NCBI GenBank assembly: GCA_965199685.1
Contig: OZ241323.1
Location: 90,619-154,618 of the forward strand
Reading direction: 5' to 3'
DNA length: 64,000 bases
DNA from: an uncultured candidatus Porisulfidus sp.
GTDB lineage: Bacteria; Pseudomonadota; Gammaproteobacteria; Poriferisulfidales; Oxydemutatoraceae
In this document: one piece after another, positions 11,507 to 52,570 of the stretch
How positions within the stretch are numbered: the first letter of the stretch is position 1
Layout of the letters: every line of letters begins with the position of its first letter
Made by a program: the position numbers and the translations under genes
Notes under the pieces: model-generated
What the model saw: only the letters and a program-made list of their open reading frames with translations
What the model was told of the DNA's origin: nothing
Databases searched by the model: none

Positions 11507-11574
11507 AAGGGAATTCAGGTAGCCTCAGATTTGAGATTGGATAAAGTGAAATATAAGCCCATTGAAAAAGCAAT

Positions 11575-11712
11575 ATTCCCCTCCTGTGGAGGGGTGTCAG
11601 GTCTATGCATTTTGTAATGCATGCGTTTAACAATCATGTTGGGATTCTGCACAATGTCACGCCGATTGACCTACTGGGTCAATCGGCGGTTCTATTTTTC
11701 AACAGCTCCAAA
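11575..11712. repeat. MITE/REP-like element module
   Basis: Hairpin CCCCTCCTGTGGAGGGG at 11577, ATGCATTTTGTAATGCAT, CGCCGATTGACCTACTGGGTCAATCGGCG, ending TTTTTCAACAGCTCC. Confidence 0.65.
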
Positions 11713-14721: not shown

Positions 14722-15400
14722 TTCCCCATTTGTAGGGGCGCGGATCATTCCCCTCCTCTGGAGGGGTGGCAGGCTTATGCATTTTGTAATGTATGCGTTT
14801 AGCAATCATGTTGGTGTTCTGCATAATGTCACGCTGATTGACCTGCTGGATCAATTGGCGGTTCTATCTGACGGGGTGGTTGCTAAGTATCTGCACAAAC
14901 GAAATCGTACACCACCTAATTCACGCAAACGGTAGGGGAGGGCTAGCATGCCCTCCCTAAAGTACCGTTCTGCACAAATCCAACCGCTACGCGCCATCAA
15001 ATTTAGGATAACCCATGTCGGGTACTCGTACCGTCCCAACCGCTTGCACCACTTGGTTTTGGTTCCCATAAATTGGATGGCGTACGAAGGATAATGTACG
15101 AATCTAGCAATCAAGTTAAAGTTCTGCATGATGTCACGCCGATTGACCTACTGGCTCAATCGGCGGTTCTACTTGTGCAGACGCAACGCGTTTTGGGAGG
15201 GCATGTGGGGCTGTTGAAAAAGTACCTGCATTAGTACATTCCCCTCCTGTGGAGGGGTGGCAGGCGAAGCCTGACGGGGTGGTTGTGGTGGTTCTGCACT
15301 AGACAATTATCCCTTACGAGTGCATGAAACACTTTTTCAACAGCCCCATGTTAGCCCTCCCCTACGGCTCAAGGATACTTTTTCCACAGCCTCAACCAAA
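14722..15400. repeat. Cluster of MITE/REP-like elements, including a canonical 141-bp MITE at 15207..15347
   Basis: 15207..15347 is bounded by GGGGCTGTTGAAAAAGT and ACTTTTTCAACAGCCCC and contains the hairpin CCCCTCCTGTGGAGGGG. Nearly identical to the inserted copies at 39520..39660 and 51895..52035. Confidence 0.75.
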
Positions 15401-15471
15401 AATTTTGTATAATGTGAGAGTAGGTTCATACGATTAACTTAGCATAGTGATATAAATCAAGGAGATTAGAA

Positions 15472-16206
15472 ATGTTCAAACATAGCTTTTACATTGTACC
15501 GGTTATCGCCATTTTAGCTGCTCTCAGTTGGAAATACGCAACGACGATGACACCAGCGGACAAAGAGATTCCCGAGCAGAGAGCTGAAATACTCGCTCCC
15601 GGCTGGGGTGAGTTAGATTTCACACCGCCTGAGGTTGGCACTTATGGATTGCCGCGTCTCAAAAAAGCAAGCGGTGGCAAGATTTTGTTAAGCAATGGCG
15701 ACGAGGCAAATCTGGATGAGTTCATAGGAGACAAAGCTGTGTTGCTATCTTTTATCTATACCAGTTGTTCGGATGTCAACGGCTGTCCTTTGACAACCTT
15801 CGTGATGCATAAAATGAACAAGGCCTTAAAAGAAAATCAGGCAATGAACGACGACATACGTCTGATCACATTGAGCTTTGACCCGGAGCGGGATACCCCT
15901 GATGCGATGAAATCCTATGGCGAAGATTTCAAGAGAGACAGTGCCGTGGAGTGGGTATTTGCGACGACCCATTCGCAAGAACAACTAGACCCTATACTCA
16001 ATGAATACGGACAGTTTGTATTCAAAACCGTTGAAAAAGAGGGCGATACCGAAAAAGTAAACTTTGCCCATGTATTAAAGTCCTTTTTAATAGACAAACA
16101 AGGCTATATACGAAACATCTATAGCGTTAGTTATCTACACCCTACTATTGTCCTAAACGATATCAAAACCATACTGCAAGAAAGTGGTCCGCAAGCGAGC
16201 GGATGA
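15472..16206 (+). CDS. SCO1/SenC-like thioredoxin-fold protein
   Basis: N-terminal signal/anchor. Cys pair CSDVNGCP in the position of the SCO CxxxC motif, downstream conserved His (FAHVLKSFLIDKQG). Precedes and overlaps a cytochrome c peroxidase gene. Confidence 0.55.
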   Translation: MFKHSFYIVPVIAILAALSWKYATTMTPADKEIPEQRAEILAPGWGELDFTPPEVGTYGLPRLKKASGGKILLSNGDEANLDEFIGDKAVLLSFIYTSCSDVNGCPLTTFVMHKMNKALKENQAMNDDIRLITLSFDPERDTPDAMKSYGEDFKRDSAVEWVFATTHSQEQLDPILNEYGQFVFKTVEKEGDTEKVNFAHVLKSFLIDKQGYIRNIYSVSYLHPTIVLNDIKTILQESGPQASG

Positions 16207-17474
16207 ATAGGCGTGTTCTTGTCTTAAACACGCTCGGCGGCATCGCCGCCGTTACATTACTCTCAGTAGCTTGGTCGGCAGACCAGAGATTGCCGCGCTC
16301 AGGTGATGTGCGCGACGGCTATGAGTCATCCGATTATGTAAGCCAAACCCAGAGCCTGATGGAACGGGTTGGTGTGGCAGCCGATCTTTACAAAATAGCC
16401 ACTGCACCGCAACTCGGCATACCTTCGCTACAACATCCGACTGACAATCCGCTCAGCCGTGCTGCGATTGAACTCGGCAGGCGATTATTTTTTGACAGAC
16501 GGTTGTCAATCAACGACACGATGTCGTGTGCTGGTTGTCATGTGCCCGAAATGGGTTTTGCCAATAACGAACATCAAACCTCGGTTGGTGTAGAAGGACG
16601 CAGTGTGCGGCGCAACGCTCCGACGATACTCAATGTTGCCTATAAGACGATGCTATTCCACGACGGAAGAGAATCCACACTGGAAAACCAAGTATGGATA
16701 CCACTGTTGAAACGCAACGAAATGGCAAATCCTTCCATAGGTTATGTGATACAAAAAATCAACAACATCAAAGATTATGATGGTTTGTTTGAAAAGGCAT
16801 TCGGTCGCTCGGCTTCTATGGAGACGATAGGCATGGCACTCGCCCAATATCAGCGCACGCTGATCTCGGCAAACTCCCGTTTTGATCGCTGGCACTACGG
16901 CGATGAAAAAGCGTTGTTGGACGAAGAAGAACAACTTGGCTTTGAGGTGTTCACCGGCAAAGGACTTTGCTCTGCGTGTCATTTAATTGGTGAGGAATAC
17001 GCATTGTTCACCGACAACTTACTGCATAATACTGGTCTGGGTTACGATATTGCGATGAGTAAGGAACCTCCGACGCATCGTGTGCAACTAGCCCCTGGCG
17101 TTTTCGTAGATGTCAAAAGCGAGTTAATCAATGCGGTATCACAAACCCGGCAAACGATGAGAAACGATTTAGGACGCTACGAAGTGACCGAAGACCCTGA
17201 TGATTTGTGGAAATATCTAACACCTACACTGCGTAATATAGAACTCAGCGCACCGTATATGCACAACGGTCAACTGGCAACCTTAGAAGAGGTTATTGAC
17301 TTTTACGATAAAGGCGGCATACAAAACCCTAGGTTGAGTCCGCTGATTAAGGCATTAGCACTTAATCAACAAGAAAAGCAGGGGTTGGTTGCGTTTCTTA
17401 AAACTTTAACTGGTGCCAACGTGGCCGAACTCACCCACGACGCATTCGCCGCACCAATCGGCGACACACAATGA
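16203..17474 (+). CDS. Di-haem cytochrome c peroxidase (CCP/MauG family)
   Basis: Two CxxCH haem motifs (CAGCHVPEMGF; CSACHLIGEEYALFTDNLLHNTGLG) and a signal peptide. 4-nt overlap with the upstream gene. Confidence 0.85.
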   Translation: MNRRVLVLNTLGGIAAVTLLSVAWSADQRLPRSGDVRDGYESSDYVSQTQSLMERVGVAADLYKIATAPQLGIPSLQHPTDNPLSRAAIELGRRLFFDRRLSINDTMSCAGCHVPEMGFANNEHQTSVGVEGRSVRRNAPTILNVAYKTMLFHDGRESTLENQVWIPLLKRNEMANPSIGYVIQKINNIKDYDGLFEKAFGRSASMETIGMALAQYQRTLISANSRFDRWHYGDEKALLDEEEQLGFEVFTGKGLCSACHLIGEEYALFTDNLLHNTGLGYDIAMSKEPPTHRVQLAPGVFVDVKSELINAVSQTRQTMRNDLGRYEVTEDPDDLWKYLTPTLRNIELSAPYMHNGQLATLEEVIDFYDKGGIQNPRLSPLIKALALNQQEKQGLVAFLKTLTGANVAELTHDAFAAPIGDTQ

Positions 17475-17506
17475 CATTGTGAAGAACCGCAACATAACTT
17501 ATGAAA

Positions 17507-17675
17507 TGTAGGGGTGGATCATTCCCCTCCTGTGGAGGAGTGGCAGGCCTATGCACTTTGTGATGCACGCGTTTAGCAATTATGTTAAGGTTCTGCACGG
17601 TGTCACGCCGATTGACCCACTGGCTCAATCGGCGGTTCTATCTGACGGGGTGGTTTTTTGCGTACCTACCATTTG
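17507..17675. repeat. MITE/REP-like element module
   Basis: Hairpin CCCCTCCTGTGGAGGAG plus ATGCACTTTGTGATGCAC plus CGCCGATTGACCCACTGGCTCAATCGGCG. Confidence 0.65.
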
Positions 17676-17768
17676 ACCGTATTCCCAAATTTAGCACTCA
17701 TCTTAAAGTCAATTTTCCTGATGAGCATTTTTATGTAAAATCACGACCGCCGAAGTTCTGAGACTATT

Positions 17769-18101
17769 TTAGAGGAATTTAATCACTCCGACGGCAATGC
17801 TAACAACAATTACAATCAGCCAACGTAAGTACTTCAACTCAGTTCGTATCTCTCGTATGTCGGCCTTTACTTCCGCTATATCAGTCTTTACCTCTGCTAC
17901 CTCTGCTTTTACCCCCGCTATATCAGCTTTGGTTGCCATATCTTTGATATCAGCTTTCGTTTCGGCTTTTAGTTCTATGATATCTGTCTTAGTTGCTATG
18001 TTCTTTGAACTCGCAACATCGGCTACGGCTTCTTTTGCCTCGTCATGATTGAGTCCTAATTTAGTAAGTGCATTGTATAGTGCGATTTCTGACATCTCCA
18101 T
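17769..18101 (-). CDS. DUF1640-like small coiled-coil protein with C-terminal TM anchor (copy 1 of 3)
   Basis: IALYNALTKLGLNHDEAKEAVADV..ATKTDIIELKAETKADIKDMATKADI.. periodic K(A/T)DI repeats then a hydrophobic tail. Paralogs at 38928..39251 and 44895..45191. Confidence 0.6.
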   Translation of the reverse strand: MEMSEIALYNALTKLGLNHDEAKEAVADVASSKNIATKTDIIELKAETKADIKDMATKADIAGVKAEVAEVKTDIAEVKADIREIRTELKYLRWLIVIVVSIAVGVIKFL

Positions 18102-18382
18102 TTACTCCTATGTTTATATATGTGCAGCATATCACATACCGACACTTGGTTACCCCGCAAGTACCCAAAGTCATCAGTGGCTGTCGCCGGGGTGACCTTG
18201 AGCTATCTGCGTTCGCAAAGTCGCTTGGTATGGATGAACAAGCGGAACCAGTTTACGGATAGATCTGCTGAAATTGACTGGTTTGGTTTCAAAGAGGCAG
18301 TGAAAACTACATTTTTAGACATCTTCAAAGTGAAAGTGACCAGAAGTGGCAAGACAAAAATAGAGGAGATATGTATCTGGCA

Positions 18383-18958
18383 TTATTCAGCAGGTGCTTT
18401 AAGTAAGGTGTCTGGGCTTCTATCTTCTTCTCCTGCTTGCAGTTCTTCTGGCTTATCAAGAAGTTTAAAACTTCCTCCCATTTCTATAAATACTGGCCCA
18501 CGCCAATTCCCATCCTTAGCTAAAAATATAGCTTCGACATACGTTGCTGCAGGAGCAGTAATGAGGCTACATCTTTCTAGTGCATTCCAAGGGCAATTCT
18601 CTTCTCCATTTTCATGAGAAATTAGTCTTTCTCTAATTGGTAAGGTATATTCTTCTGCTATTTTATGAAATATGACCTCTGTATTTTCAAAATAGCACCC
18701 TTCTTCATTAGAAACGAGTTCAAGAACCCTAGGAGTTCCGGTGTATATTACTTTTTTATTTTCTACTTGAGAGCACCGAATCCTATGAAGCTTTTCTATT
18801 CCTTCTTTGGTGCAAATAATAAATCCATCACCACTTTCAATTGGGTATTTATATCTTGTGTTTTTATGCTCTGCTATAGCACTAAGAGAGAAGAGTAGAA
18901 GAGAAAGAGCTAGTAAAGTGCTTTTAAAAAAATTTAATGAAAACAAGTAGTTAAGCAT
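18383..18958 (-). CDS. Secreted 4-Cys domain protein, short form (family copy S1)
   Basis: Signal peptide MLNYLFSLNFFKSTLLALSLLLFSLSAIA, then a ~150-aa domain with conserved C (IICTK), EEGCYFE, NCPW, ERC. Conserved upstream region with GGAGAAAAG RBS. Confidence 0.7.
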   Translation of the reverse strand: MLNYLFSLNFFKSTLLALSLLLFSLSAIAEHKNTRYKYPIESGDGFIICTKEGIEKLHRIRCSQVENKKVIYTGTPRVLELVSNEEGCYFENTEVIFHKIAEEYTLPIRERLISHENGEENCPWNALERCSLITAPAATYVEAIFLAKDGNWRGPVFIEMGGSFKLLDKPEELQAGEEDRSPDTLLKAPAE

Positions 18959-19065
18959 AATTCCGCTTTTCTCCTAATGGATAACAATAGCAATGTAGTT
19001 AGAATACGATATTTGATGTGAATAGTCAATTTATTGTACGATGCTTGTCAACCCAAAGTTGAAAT

Positions 19066-19420
19066 ATGGGACTGTTGAGAAAGTATTCTTGAGCCGTAGG
19101 GGAGGGCTAACATGCCCTCCCGAAACGCGATGCGCTTGCACAAGTAGAATCGCCGATTGAACCAGTAGGTCAATCGGCGTGACATTGTTCAGAACCTTAA
19201 CAACCACCCCGTCAGGCTTCGCCTGCCACCCCTCCACAGGAGGGGAATGTACTAATGCAGACACTTTTTCAACAGCCCGATGTTAGCCCTCCCCTACAGT
19301 TGGTTACCATAAGTTTAATGGCGCAAGCGGTTACGTTTGAGCCAGTAGGTTAATCGGCAATTTAATAAGTCTGCCCCTACAGGGGGTTGAGGGGAATTAA
19401 CTGATGCAGACACAACGCGT
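19066..19420. repeat. MITE/REP-like elements (long ~210-bp variant)
   Basis: GGGACTGTTGAGAAAGT..hairpin..ACTTTTTCAACAGCCCG. Same as 34225..34436. Confidence 0.65.
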
Positions 19421-19479
19421 TAGGGTAGACATGCAAGTCTGCCCCTACTGGTGTAGGTTACGTTGCGATTCTGATGGGT

Positions 19480-19508
19480 TTGACACCTTGAAGGTGCGGT
19501 CTTATGCT
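19480..19508 (+). promoter_or_regulatory. Candidate sigma70 promoter (TTGACA-17-TATGCT) heading a conserved ~160-nt leader of the long-form genes
   Basis: Same promoter and leader repeated at 23616..23644, ~27500, ~28960 and ~34670 upstream of each long-form paralog. Confidence 0.5.
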
Positions 19509-19667
19509 GTTATTATGTGTGGAAATTAATAGCTTTCGGGTTGCTAGAACCTATAAGCTGGGCAAGATTTTGAGAAATGCAATTTTAGAGTGACCGAATA
19601 GACCATAGAAGTACGGTGATCTCAAGCGAGTAGTGATTGCTAAAATCATATGTTTAATGGAGGAAAA

Positions 19668-20534
19668 ATGAACAGAGAAAACATGATGGCCGATATACAA
19701 AAAGACTGGGATGAAAACCCTCACTGGGAAAACATCAAACGCACCTGCGGTGTGGCAGATGTCGCCCGCTTGAGTGGTTCGCTACATCAAGCGTATGCTG
19801 ATGCGCGTTTGGGGTTGGAGAAATTATGGAACTTGTTAAAGGAAGGATCCAAAACAAACGGAGTTGTCAGGCTGTCTTTGATTACCATTATTTTGACTTT
19901 GGTCGTAGCGATAGGTGGTTGTAGCACTGCTTCCCAATATCAATACAATGAAAGGGAGGAGTATAACGATGAGGAAGGAGTAGAGCAAGACCAGGAAGAG
20001 GAATCTAAGCAGGATCAGAAAGCAGCTGAGCAAGGAGATGCAGCGGCTCAAAAAAAAGATATAGCGGTTTACAAAAACACAAAGTATATAAGTCCAGACG
20101 GTGGATTTGTTATTTGCACTAAATCAGGAATAGAAAAGCTTTATAAGAAAAGGCTCTCTCAAATAGAAAAGGGAGAAGTAATATACACCGGAGTTCCTAG
20201 GGTTCTTGAGCTAGTTTCTAATGAAGAAGGGTGCTATTTTGAAGATAGAACGGTCGTATTTATTAGAATGGCAGAGGAATATGCCTTACCAATTAGAAAA
20301 AGACCAGTTACCCATGAAGAAGGAGAAGAGCCTTGCCCTTGGAATGCACTAGAAAGATGTAAACGAGTTATTGCTCCTGCAGCAACGTATGTCGAAGCTG
20401 AATTTCTATATGACAATGGCAAATGGTATGGAGGCGTATTTATAGAAATGGGATGGAATTTTGAGCTTCTTGATAGGCCAGAGGATACGCAAGCTGGAGA
20501 AGATAGAACTCCCAATAATACTCTATCTCAATAA
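19668..20534 (+). CDS. Membrane-anchored 4-Cys domain protein, long form (family copy L1)
   Basis: RBS GGAGGAAAAATG. Conserved N-terminal ~65-aa cytoplasmic module (MNRENMMADIQKDW..), one TM/lipobox-like segment (LSLITIILTLVVAIGGC), acidic linker, then the same 4-Cys domain as the short forms. ORF track starts at 19650. Confidence 0.7.
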   Translation: MNRENMMADIQKDWDENPHWENIKRTCGVADVARLSGSLHQAYADARLGLEKLWNLLKEGSKTNGVVRLSLITIILTLVVAIGGCSTASQYQYNEREEYNDEEGVEQDQEEESKQDQKAAEQGDAAAQKKDIAVYKNTKYISPDGGFVICTKSGIEKLYKKRLSQIEKGEVIYTGVPRVLELVSNEEGCYFEDRTVVFIRMAEEYALPIRKRPVTHEEGEEPCPWNALERCKRVIAPAATYVEAEFLYDNGKWYGGVFIEMGWNFELLDRPEDTQAGEDRTPNNTLSQ

Positions 20535-20952
20535 CTACCAAACTGCACTTTTAGCTAGCCTTACAGAACTCCAAGAAGCCCTTGATAGGCTAAAAGGTGC
20601 CAAAGCTCAATTCCCCGGACACTGCGTAGCCATGGATACCATCCATCATTTTGCTAAGCAGACGCGCTACTATGTGTTTACTGCGATTGATCACTACAGC
20701 CGTTTCTCCATGGCGATTACCTGCCGACGCACCAGCAGTAAAAATGCTACAGCATTTGCAAAGTGGGTGCATACGGTATTCCCCGGCAACATCTCTCAAG
20801 TACTGACCGATAACGGCAGCGAGTTTCAGGGAGACTTCGATGCTTCTCTACAGCAACAACATATCAAACACTGCTATACTTATCCTCGTTGCCCGAAAAT
20901 GAATGCCATAGACGACTTGTCTAATATGTCATGGCATCGTACAATAAATTGA
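20461..20952 (+). pseudogene. IS481-family transposase internal (DDE core) fragment fused to the 3' end of the long-form gene
   Basis: 20585..20935 matches residues ~185-305 of the full transposase at 40267..41355 (AKAQFPGHCVAMDTIH..TDNGSEF..). It has an internal ~190-bp deletion (..MNAIDD|LSNMSWHRT). Confidence 0.7.
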
Positions 20953-21009
20953 CTATTTGCATCAAATAATATATTCTCTATATTGTTATCCATTAGGAGA
21001 AAAAGTGAA

Positions 21010-50526: not shown

Positions 50527-50581
50527 ACCTCCAGTTATTTTTTAGCCAATGGCATCGCTGTATTTTTAGAGGGGAACCGTA

Positions 50582-51613
50582 TCAATTTTCTGAAAATAAA
50601 AGTTGATGATTCCGCTCAGGCGGATCCACTCGCCCGGTTTCAAGTGCAGTTGCTATGTGTTGAATAATCGGACTTGGTCTAGATAAATCCTCATTCTTAG
50701 CTAGAAAATACGTATGGCCTGCGGGATCATCAAAAGTATTATTGAAGTCATCGCAATCAACAGCGTAGACATTTTTAGGTACTTTATTCATATCCTCTGG
50801 TCCTGTCATGCCTAAGCGACGAGACAGACCAGAACGGACAATATTCGCTATCTTGCTTGCCGGCATTGCATAATCATCGTTTGCATAATAAACCACAACA
50901 TTTCGTGCAGCTTGGGGAATATATCGCCCTTTTTCTCTTTTTTCTAATGTTTCATTTACAACGTCCGCGGCTACCATAAATATATTTCGGAATAGCTGGG
51001 GCATTTGCCTTGACGAGGAAATACCACCTGCCCAATATCTGAGTGCCTCTCGTAACACACGGTTTCCCATAGAATGAGCCAAAACATTAATGCGTTTATA
51101 ACACTTTTCGTCTTGCTTATGACGCCAGGTATCAAATTTACCAAGCATTCGAGCAAATGCTTCCGCACTTATATTGGCAGTACTTCGGTCATCGTAGTAA
51201 TCATTTAGTTTAGCAAAAGTACCATCGTCGTCACATGGCCAAATCAATGGTATAACGCGAACATAATCTTCACCTAAATCTGCATTTCTATCAAGCAGTT
51301 TCTGAAGGTCTATAGCTTTTTGGAAAGCACCATCCTCCATACGATTATTAAATCCATGAATAAAAAGTAGGATTTGTTTACAGTCTCTGTCTTTACTTAG
51401 TTTTGTGAAAAAACTATCGTTCCCTATTTCTATATAATCATCCTGAGATTTTCGTTCACAAAAAAACATGTGCTGACTGGCCGTAATGTTTTGTGGATTA
51501 AAGCTAACATTTCTACCAATTGCTGTGTTTTCGCCTTCGTTAGGCATCCGATTAGTAGCAAATAACATATTACCTCCTAAAAATTTCCAAAATTGTTTTC
51601 TAACATTCAGCAT
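50582..51613 (-). CDS. Alpha/beta hydrolase, DUF900 family
   Basis: LLFIHGFNNRMED and nucleophile elbow AHSMGN, as in DUF900 (PF05990) hydrolases. Confidence 0.65.
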   Translation of the reverse strand: MLNVRKQFWKFLGGNMLFATNRMPNEGENTAIGRNVSFNPQNITASQHMFFCERKSQDDYIEIGNDSFFTKLSKDRDCKQILLFIHGFNNRMEDGAFQKAIDLQKLLDRNADLGEDYVRVIPLIWPCDDDGTFAKLNDYYDDRSTANISAEAFARMLGKFDTWRHKQDEKCYKRINVLAHSMGNRVLREALRYWAGGISSSRQMPQLFRNIFMVAADVVNETLEKREKGRYIPQAARNVVVYYANDDYAMPASKIANIVRSGLSRRLGMTGPEDMNKVPKNVYAVDCDDFNNTFDDPAGHTYFLAKNEDLSRPSPIIQHIATALETGRVDPPERNHQLLFSEN

Positions 51614-52110
51614 ACCCTCTTGTTATTCTTTAATTCAAATTGAGGATAATTAACTAAGTAGCTTACACATCTAAAAAGCAAAGTCAACCCCCTTAAGTGT
51701 ATTTGCGCAGTCAATAGTATGAAAACTAACTTTGTAGTTGGTAATAATAATGGGGTAACGTCACCTTGTGCACGCAACTCCTGATAGATGCGCGGTGAAC
51801 CATAGTCCTTGCCACTGGCTTCCCACACCTACCTAATCAGCAGGCATTCCCAGTGCTCCTGAGCAACCTTGTCAGCCACTTGACTACGCCATTTGGGACT
51901 GTTGAAAAAGTGTTTGCATTGGTACATTCCCCTCCTGTGGAGGGGTGGCAGGCGAAGCCTGACGGGGTGGTTGTGGTGGTTCTGCACTAGACAATTACCC
52001 TCTACGATGCATGATGGTACTTTTTCAACAGTCCCATTTGTAGTAGCCACTACGGCTCACTCCAAGCAGCTTACAAGTCGCATCTATACTCAAGCCTTTA
52101 TTACGATACT
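51607..52110 (-). pseudogene. IS3 type-A OrfB N-terminal fragment disrupted by a MITE
   Basis: ..KWRSQVADKVAQE..VWEASGK.YGSPRIYQELRAQG matches OrfB. 141-bp MITE at 51895..52035 sits inside it. Confidence 0.6.
51895..52035. mobile_element. 141-bp MITE insertion with 5-bp target-site duplication ATTTG
   Basis: Uninterrupted paralogous sequence at ~47570 reads GACTACGCCATTTGTAGTAGCC. Here GACTACGCCATTTG[GGACTGTTGAAAAAGT..ACTTTTTCAACAGTCCC]ATTTGTAGTAGCC. Confidence 0.8.
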
Positions 52111-52189
52111 GTTCTAAAATGTCTATTTTTCGTTGTCATTACTAGTTATTTTACCGAATCTTGGTCACTTAACTAGTCAAGTGCCTAAT

Positions 52190-52570
52190 ACAATATGGGG
52201 CTGTTGAAAAAGTATCATCTCTGCACAAATTGAACCACTGTGTGCCATCGAATTTACGAAAACGGTAGGGGCAAGTAGAGCCGCCGATTGAGCCAGTAGG
52301 TCAATCGGCAATTTGATTTATCCGCCCTAACGCGTTGTATCTACAAAAATAAAGTCGTAAGCCATCCAATTTATGGGAACCAAAACCAAGTGGCGCAGGC
52401 GGTTCTGTTCGTGCAAAGCGGTACTTTAGGGCAGACATACGAGTCCGCCCCTACAGGGGGTTCATGTAAAGATGGTGGATGTGCAAAAAACCACCCCGTC
52501 AGGCTGCGCCTGCCACCCCTCCGAAGAAGGGGAATGGTCCGCCCCTACAGGCGGTTCTAATTTTCAAAAG
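52190..52570. repeat. Cluster of MITE/REP-like elements
   Basis: GGGGCTGTTGAAAAAGT at 52197. CGCCGATTGAGCCAGTAGGTCAATCGGC. Hairpin CCCCTCCGAAGAAGGGG at ~52515. Confidence 0.6.

Follow-up and report, generated by a model that had tools for sequence, protein, structure and literature searches.

Miniature inverted-repeat elements with IS1182-family ends in the intergenic DNA of an uncultured Porisulfidus gammaproteobacterium

Introduction

The intergenic regions of a 64-kb stretch of DNA from an uncultured candidatus Porisulfidus sp. (contig OZ241323.1, positions 90,619 to 154,618; hereafter the window, whose whole 64 kb sets all coordinates given here) are crowded with short repeats, raising the question of what these repeats are and which enzyme moved them. 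A preliminary description, made from the sequence alone, read them as one active family of MITEs (miniature inverted-repeat transposable elements), 85–210 bp long. The MITE reading is borne out here by small, non-coding units with 17-nt terminal inverted repeats (TIRs), target-site duplications, many copies and two exact empty sites; other parts of that description are revised below. As the TIRs also bound autonomous insertion sequences (ISs) of the IS1182 family, the window elements are very probably IS1182-type non-autonomous transposons, moved by an IS1182-family transposase supplied in trans.

Results

Terminal repeats and modules

A scan of both strands for the TIR, GGGGCTGTTGAAAAAGT, allowing up to three mismatches, returned 28 matches in the window, whereas 100 dinucleotide-preserving shuffles averaged 0.19 and peaked at 2. 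The three internal modules named in the preliminary description also recur, with 18 occurrences of the hairpin CCCCTCC-TGTG-GGAGGGG, 7 of ATGCATTTTGTAATGCAT, and ~13 of CGCCGATTGACCTACTGGCTCAATCGGCG. Perfect 17/17 TIRs are still present at 838, 15207, 15331, 23317, 28767, and 52197, those at 15207 and 15331 being the two arms of the 141-bp copy at 15207–15347, which folds as single-stranded DNA with an energy of -35.6 kcal/mol (z = -6.8). This copy, previously taken as canonical, is itself nested in the hairpin loop of an outer MITE ending at 15393. The copies at 39519–39660 and 51895–52035 are each ~90% identical to it. A search of the whole window against Rfam at gathering threshold gave no match, and a full-text literature search with the TIR string found only unrelated polymerase chain reaction primers.

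The exact 17-mer was further sought in a collection holding one genome per species (596 Gb), in which at least 114 loci matched. Since ~70 chance singletons are estimated for any 17-mer in 596 Gb, only paired or repeated matches were used, and unpaired single matches, including two archaeal ones, were ignored. Among the matches listed, 14 loci form a related-lineage set of ~112 kb, and related metagenome-assembled genomes (MAGs) named 'Porisulfidus' carry MITE copies 88–98% identical to those of the window. The window's EF-Tu shares 90% identity at the DNA level, and 97% at the protein level, with the EF-Tu from a Ca. Oxydemutatoraceae (Gammaproteobacteria) MAG; both names occur in papers on sponge holobionts.

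The two arms of an element match each other for 17–18 nt only, and complete units, which measure 141–238 bp in the window and reach ~330 bp in related loci, are too short for a transposase. Rather than one family of 85–210 bp there are several TIR-sharing subfamilies, with mosaic interiors and lengths of 141 to more than 330 bp, nested in one another. Seventeen clusters, ~5.2 kb or 8% of the window, are built of MITE sequence. The span of 15207–52035 given earlier does hold copies, but others lie at 777–1428, 3498–3640, 6813–7320, 11553–11709, 14746–15206, and 52197–52536. The statement that copies cluster in nearly every intergenic region is too strong, as there are no clusters between 52.6 and 64 kb, where the window carries EF-G, EF-Tu, and short collinear open reading frames (ORFs) taken to be a ribosomal-protein cluster.

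Insertion footprints

Two filled sites have exact empty counterparts in paralogous DNA (39519 against 18369, and 51895 against 47566), as the preliminary description had proposed. The segment 38847–40318 is paralogous to 17688–19026 at 91–96% identity (~670 bp on each flank), with a 142-bp element at 39519–39660 as the sole interruption; the filled site reads gaggagATGT, the element, and ATGTGtatctgg, with ATGT at 39515–39518 and 39661–39664, and the empty site (ATATG, 18369–18373) reads gaggagATATGtatctgg. The other element, 141 bp at 51895–52035, lies within an IS3-family orfB fragment between ATTT at 51891–51894 and 52036–52039 (cgccATTT, the element, ATTTGtagtag), with the empty site (ATTTG, 47566–47570) reading cgccATTTGtagtag in the intact IS3-family orfB at 46784–47680, minus strand. 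Both insertions are clean, and at least two insertions in this genome are later than segmental duplications. A precise loss of sequence that was there before, which the preliminary description had itself raised as the way in which its claim could fail, cannot explain either pair. The extra DNA is in both cases exactly one TIR-to-TIR unit plus one copy of the 4–5-nt repeat, one insertion breaks a conserved IS3-family orfB frame that is intact in the paralogue, and the same footprints are found at 32 elements across phyla, leaving deletion a negligible prospect.

The disruption of IS3 orfA reported at 47785 stands in part. The interrupted gene is indeed an IS3-family orfA; the MITE fragment there (47786–47964) has a single TIR, the right one at 47948–47964, and replaces ~150 bp of the 5' part of orfA relative to the intact copy of the same IS at 4337–4500. 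The insertion is not clean, being accompanied by a deletion.

When an element is counted from the outermost base of one 17-nt arm to that of the other, each of the four window copies that have direct repeats shows 4 nt, namely ACAT (834–837 and 1076–1079, around the 238-bp MITE at 838–1075), ATGT (15203–15206 and 15348–15351, around the 141-bp MITE at 15207–15347), and the ATGT and ATTT given above. The 5-bp duplication described earlier is thus 4 bp in this lineage (ATGT, ATGT, ATTT), its fifth base being the first G of the TIR. Over 78 TIR ends from the window and related loci, the bases outside the element follow A-Y-R-T, with T at -1 in 81% and A at -4 in 59% (background 27–28% each), and such a palindromic 4-nt consensus is consistent with a stagger of 4 bp. 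MITE duplications of the window's lineage measure 4 bp in 9 elements and 5 bp in 3; in other phyla, among the matches listed, 14 elements have 5 bp and 5 have 4 bp. Some elements have inverted instead of direct flanks, e.g. GGGCTAACAT and ATGTTAGCCC, which may reflect recombination between oppositely oriented copies at equivalent targets.

Target choice and nesting

Many insertions of the window's lineage lie in the loop of the REP-like (repetitive extragenic palindromic) hairpin GGGAGGGC-ATGTTA-GCCCTCCC, which is unoccupied at 1249–1270 and occupied around 838–1075 and 15207–15347. Another MITE subfamily carries this hairpin close inside its ends, and insertion into the hairpin therefore gives the order outer TIR, 29 nt, inner TIR seen at 6940–7002, 1366–1428, and 15331–15393. 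Both empty sites described above likewise fall in short palindromes, with 18369–18373 at the centre of the near-palindrome AGATATGTATCT and 47566–47570 in the loop of ACTAC-GCCATTT-GTAGT. Perfect stems of at least 5 bp surround 41% of the 32 elements with clean duplications, compared with 11% of random sites, and stems of at least 6 bp surround 28% compared with 4%. Insertion prefers the centres of short palindromes, and hairpin loops inside other MITE copies are frequent targets, giving nested arrays. The bias agrees with the targeting of inverted-repeat structures reported for IS1182 members such as IS1272 (PMC5678879).

Autonomous elements with the same ends

Among the matches listed, the 17-mer bounds units of 115–500 bp in many loci, assigned by record title to Bacteroidales, Planctomycetota, Nitrospinota, Hydrogenedentota, Verrucomicrobiota, Alphaproteobacteria, and Gammaproteobacteria, with interiors that are unrelated between lineages. 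In at least six loci the 17-mer bounds, or stands beside, a transposase gene, with transposases assigned by NCBIfam model NF033551 (IS1182 family transposase; cutoff 270 bits) and Pfam. A 1528-bp element (L027) has one ORF of 468 amino acids scoring 340.6 bits, and a 1694-bp element (L066) has one of 479 amino acids scoring 341.5 bits, both with the Pfam domains DUF772, DDE_Tnp_1_6, and DDE_Tnp_1. The ends of L027, L034, L066, and a Sinorhizobium fredii plasmid element are identical to the window TIR or differ at 1–2 positions. The S. fredii element, annotated in RefSeq as encoding an IS1182 family transposase, has the ends GGGGCTGTTGAAGAAGT and a 5-bp repeat, ACCCG; a Bradyrhizobium copy ends in GGGGTCGTTGAAAAAG, and ISCfr1 has the 13-nt core CTGTTGAAAAAGT in common with the window TIR. 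ISPse1, a functional IS captured with a trap and described with inverted repeats of 16/16 and a 4-bp direct repeat (PMC3281130), was measured here at exactly 1653 bp, with ends GAGGCTGTGTGGAAAC and the 4-bp repeat GGCC, reproducing the published description.

The same ends were examined in 80 metagenome loci (L119–L198) chosen as encoding relatives (53–72% identity) of the IS1182-type transposase. Complete ISs of 1429–1713 bp are present in 68 of the 80, with the end consensus GGGGCTGTTGAAAAAGC, in which G1-3 and GTTG7-10 are invariant, and with 5-bp direct repeats in 20 of them and 4-bp ones in 8. The partner ISs and the MITEs thus agree in duplication length (4–5 bp in both), and an IS and MITEs with their ends in common are present together within single MAGs, e.g. 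L027 and L022, L028, L045, and L114 in Nitrospinota RHO1_bin_79. GGGGCTGTTGAAAAAGT is the conserved end of a widespread IS1182-family clade. The MITE interiors are lineage-specific mosaics of hairpin modules and not deletion derivatives of the IS, the ends alone being in common.

Discussion

Proposed origin and the points against it

The autonomous elements suggest how the window's arrays could have formed. An IS1182-family DDE transposase, with an N-terminal DUF772 and a DDE_Tnp_1_6/DDE_Tnp_1 catalytic domain, would be encoded elsewhere in the genome and bind both ends of a MITE; it would cut with a 4-nt stagger in the window's lineage (A-Y-R-T) and, elsewhere, mostly with a 5-nt one. With hairpin loops as favoured targets, the elements pile into one another and fill intergenic regions. 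Several observations weigh against this assignment. A tblastn search of the window and the at least 114 loci detected no IS1182-family transposase in the window or in its related lineage (14 loci, ~112 kb). The pal2 and CCCCTCC hairpin modules of the window's lineage are absent from all 80 metagenome IS loci, so that a cognate partner in this organism is inferred and not seen. The direct repeat is absent from 13 of the 25 TIR pairs in the window's lineage, which we provisionally attribute to nesting, decay, and recombination, and at any single site a 4-bp duplication cannot be told from a 5-bp one, because the element begins with G. Furthermore, full-length window copies are only ~90–95% identical to each other, which argues against a very recent burst. 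The absence of a nearby partner bears on current mobility only, not on the origin of the ends; together with the 5–10% differences between full copies, it leaves the earlier word 'active' without support. The search for an autonomous partner, suggested with the preliminary description, succeeded in that IS1182-family ISs with matching ends exist in other genomes, but none lies in the window.

The transposases that the window does encode were considered as partners and rejected, since none is bounded by the TIR: three are of the IS3 family (21847–22610, 25985–26803, and 46784–47680), one is of the rve-integrase type (40267–41355), which we take to be IS481-like, and one is of the IS256 family (45761–46717). 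Their families have TG..CA ends or make duplications of 8–9 bp.

Alternative explanations

The elements could instead be a fossil IS1182-type family, whose partner has been lost, whose filled and empty sites record old events, and whose copies persist as hairpin-rich intergenic DNA. In addition to the lack of a partner in the window and the ~112 kb of related-lineage DNA and the divergence of the copies, the paralogous flanks are themselves 4–9% diverged, and many ends are decayed or unpaired. Such a history has an appreciable chance of being correct, somewhat below even. Several TIRs are nevertheless still perfect over 17/17, direct repeats are intact at four copies, copies in related MAGs are up to 98% identical to those of the window, and the DNA examined is a small fraction of the genome.

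The remaining explanations replace the IS1182 family by another source. If the GGGG...CCCC arms were merely the outer part of long palindromes, the units could be REP sequences, or paired REPs forming hairpins (REPINs), mobilised by a REP-associated tyrosine transposase (RAYT, IS200/IS605-like). The GTAG-headed inner hairpins GTAGGGGCGGAC..GTCCGCCCCTAC and GTAGGGGAGGGC..GCCCTCCCCTAC, whose stem changes are compensatory between copies, speak for this, and their head resembles the GTAG-tagged REPs named in the title of one paper. Taken by themselves, the inner hairpins could well be REP-like units. REPINs are not known to make target-site duplications, however, whereas the TIR-bounded units have them, with exact empty sites, and have arms identical to the ends of ISs with DDE transposases; no Y1 transposase was found among the 26 window ORFs scanned, a scan that was not exhaustive. 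A REPIN origin of the TIR-bounded units is accordingly very improbable. Tn3-family-derived miniature elements (TIMEs) come to mind because Tn3-family ends start with GGGG and the family makes 5-bp duplications; the window elements have GGGG termini, and their duplications can be read as 5 bp. Against this, the arms match over 17–18 nt, not ~38 nt, the duplication is 4 bp in this lineage, and all autonomous elements found with these ends are IS1182-family ISs of 1.4–1.7 kb without a Tn3-type transposase or resolvase, making a Tn3 origin scarcely credible.

Comparison with known systems

IS1182-derived MITEs with repeats of ~18 bp and 4-bp duplications have already been published, and the window family adds to them. 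MITEPye1 of Paracoccus yeei, whose partner is the IS1182-family ISPye18, has 18-bp TIRs and 4-bp repeats (PMC11578231). By its description it resembles the window elements in being non-coding and intergenic, in its IS1182-like TIRs and predicted long stem-loop, and in its proposed mobilisation in trans, but it is present at 1–3 copies per chromosome, in contrast to the 17 clusters per 64 kb, mosaic subfamilies, and nesting in hairpin loops of the window (PMC11578231). The MITEs associated with ISMac2 in Methanosarcina acetivorans (160–169 bp, 7–14 copies, 25–26-bp inverted repeats, and a 4-bp repeat in one family; PMC3852290) likewise have an IS1182-family partner, and differ in their archaeal host, their longer inverted repeats, and in that nesting is unreported. 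ISPse1, ISCfr1, and the rhizobial IS1182 elements have the end signature G(G/A)GGCTGT..GAAA(A) and repeats of 4–5 bp in common with the window elements, but are 1.5–1.65 kb long and encode a transposase, whereas the window elements encode nothing.

IS1272 of Staphylococcus targets inverted repeats or stem-loops, with some structures bearing tandemly duplicated ends and some insertions lacking direct repeats (PMC5678879), features comparable to the double-TIR ends and inverted half-target flanks of the window. IS1272, an autonomous Gram-positive element, was reported to insert without duplications (PMC5678879), in contrast to the window elements, among which clean 4-bp ones are common. ISs that target REP sequences, for which extragenic palindromes act as a safe haven (PMC1525189), differ from the window in that here MITEs insert and the palindromes lie inside other MITEs. 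The cyanobacterial Nezha element (Anabaena/Nostoc; Zhou et al. 2008), a MITE of 130–170 bp shown to be mobile by comparison of filled and empty sites (PMC3184786, PMC6042816), was rejected as an identity, as were the small dispersed repeats of Nostoc. Nezha has a 10-bp direct repeat (CATTATCTAC) in its reference copy (PMC6042816), the partner ISNpu3, and a cyanobacterial host, whereas the window is not cyanobacterial but gammaproteobacterial-like, with 4-bp repeats and with its EF-Tu and MITE copies matching gammaproteobacterial MAGs.

Implications

The IS1182-type reading ties the dense MITE population of a sponge-symbiont-like gammaproteobacterium to a known IS family and provides a usable IS1182-family end signature, GGGGCTGTTGAAAAAG. 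It does not overturn current understanding, and adds quantitative support for the preference of the IS1182 family for palindromic targets. Nested MITE DNA makes up ~8% of the window and accounts for most of the long 'empty' intergenic stretches that lie before 52.6 kb; it should be masked ahead of any calling of promoters, terminators, or small RNAs.

More tentatively, the transposase clade might be a palindrome-homing DDE enzyme with unusually strict targets, with the MITEs of this lineage placed at A-Y-R-T hairpin centres and the autonomous relatives at a fixed site in IS256-family genes (see below). Were this so, which we consider rather doubtful, self-nesting arrays that spare genes could be its consequence, a corollary held with the same reserve. 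One 17-nt end is found on unrelated MITE interiors in six or more phyla, and some of the MAGs concerned bear names tied to sponge holobionts; with the same reserve, this would be consistent with an IS that spread horizontally on repeated occasions, new MITEs then arising de novo out of local hairpin repeats.

Individual copies and other features of the window

The 141-bp copy at 15207–15347 sits in the loop of the GGGAGGGC/GCCCTCCC hairpin of its outer MITE, as part of a nest at 14746–15393 in which a TIR-less module (the CCCCTCC hairpin with the palindromes pal1 and pal2) follows straight after the pntB stop and precedes the outer MITE, closed by the TIR at 15377–15393. The 238-bp MITE at 838–1075 sits in the loop of GGGAGGGC-TAACATG-CCCTCCC; its left end is like that of the canonical copy, its right arm differs, and it has an extra internal module of ~95 bp (pal1 and pal2). 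It belongs to a nest at 777–1428 that occupies an entire intergenic region and whose outer element closes with TIRs at 1366–1382 and 1412–1428. Four left-end TIRs (6813, 6940, 6986, and 7279) mark the nest at 6813–7320, in which the 29 nt between outer and inner TIR hold half of the REP-like hairpin.

Some copies have been duplicated with their surroundings. The 212-bp TIR-to-TIR composite at 19068–19279, with adjoining MITE sequence to 19453, has a paralogous copy at 34227–34620, and the 23139–~23314 part of the cluster at 23139–23589 (left TIRs at 23139 and 23317) is repeated at 27280–27455 through a tandem duplication of ~4.1 kb. Less complete copies are the fragment at 28767–28933, whose left TIR is perfect and whose hairpin module is shortened; the sequence at 33125–33343, where a left TIR with one mismatch is followed by the hairpin, pal1, and pal2 straight after the stop of ORF 30890–33115; the same modules reversed and without a TIR at 44404–44810; and a decayed MITE at 11553–11709, with a degenerate left TIR, three mismatches in the right TIR, and an interior of hairpin, pal1, and pal2. 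At 52197–52536 another MITE subfamily is represented by a copy in which the left TIR (52197) is perfect and a right TIR cannot be recognised.

TIR-less arrangements of the hairpin, pal1, and pal2 are also found at 3498–3640, which ends in GGTTGTTTTTTG and lies 25 nt after the stop of ORF 2721–3473, and at 17520–17660, which ends in GGTGGTTTTTTG and lies 46 nt after the stop of ORF 16203–17474. Together with 14746–14885 and 33206–33343, these TIR-less modules of ~140 bp are positioned 25–90 nt past the stops of four plus-strand ORFs, in the same orientation. The modules at 3498 and 17520 close with six T after GGTTG/GGTGG, and that at 14746–14885 ends in GGTGGTTGCTAAG, with no T run.

The palindrome CCGATTGACCTACTGGCTCAATCGG occurs in the window at 954–982, 3584–3612, 7161–7189, 15137–15165, 19151–19179, and 52282–52310, among others, and in a further locus (L086) at 754–830. 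It is found in two unrelated contexts, either between GTTCTGCAC..GTCACG and CGGTTCTAT, or looped out within the REP-like hairpins GGGCAGAC..CTGCCCC, where it is in one case doubled in tandem; locus L052 (7784–7992) has related hairpins that lack the palindrome. CCGATTGACCTACTGGCTCAATCGG may be an independently inserting unit of ~40 bp.

In the Planctomycetota loci (L015, L019, L047, L054, L094, and L098), MITEs are located in a recurring GGGGAC(A/T)G(T/C)CACC, with 5-nt duplications (ACAGT, ACTGC, and GCTGT), which suggests a preferred target specific to that lineage.

Outside the window, in the 80 metagenome loci and one further locus (L115), relatives of the partner IS occupy a single fixed position within IS256-family (Mutator-type) transposase genes, with both orientations seen. 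Their target, TGG CAG CGC TGC / CGNGT / GCAC TTC ATG CGC AA, encodes WQRC/xVHFMRN and lies directly 3' of the palindrome GCAGCGCTGC; the carriers are soil and other metagenomes and rhizobial plasmids. The rebuilt empty site encodes QRCx[VI]H in 24 of the 59 ISs with enough flank, and in six of eight cases with long flanks removal of the IS restores a stop-free span of 324–558 amino acids that reads as an IS256-family transposase at the junction. A non-exhaustive literature search found no report of fixed-site insertion into IS256-family genes, which might deserve a study of its own. The IS256-family transposase of the window (45761–46717) is uninterrupted, with VQLCIVHMMRN at the position where the relatives have WQRCxVHFMRN.

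At least seven other IS copies or fragments (IS3, IS481-like, and IS256) are present in the window, at 3616–4500, 21847–22610, 25985–26803, 40267–41355, 45761–46717, 46784–47980, and 51740–52120. No Pfam model matches a six-copy gene family of ~294 amino acids (19594–20534, 23715–24664, 27622–28550, 29089–29561, 34787–35727, and 43292–44229); over its first ~65 residues the family is similar to the isocitrate lyase N-terminus (NF011645, E = 5e-11, a score far short of the cutoff). It is located in a segmentally duplicated block that includes the ~4.1-kb tandem duplication (19389–23314 and 23525–27455, 92% identity), and is adjoined, in either orientation, by ORFs of a second family of ~190 amino acids without a Pfam or NCBIfam match (18383–18958, 20934–21558, 25064–25686, 33540–34186, and 39684–40318). 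Large tandem-repeat ORFs are found at 4724–6784 (+), 7572–9833 (-), 29127–30773 (+), 36853–38835 (+), and 48016–50526 (-), with coding repeats of 102 nt (34 amino acids) in ~16 and 19 copies, 108 nt, 42 nt, and 93 nt, and are typical of repeat proteins in host-associated bacteria.

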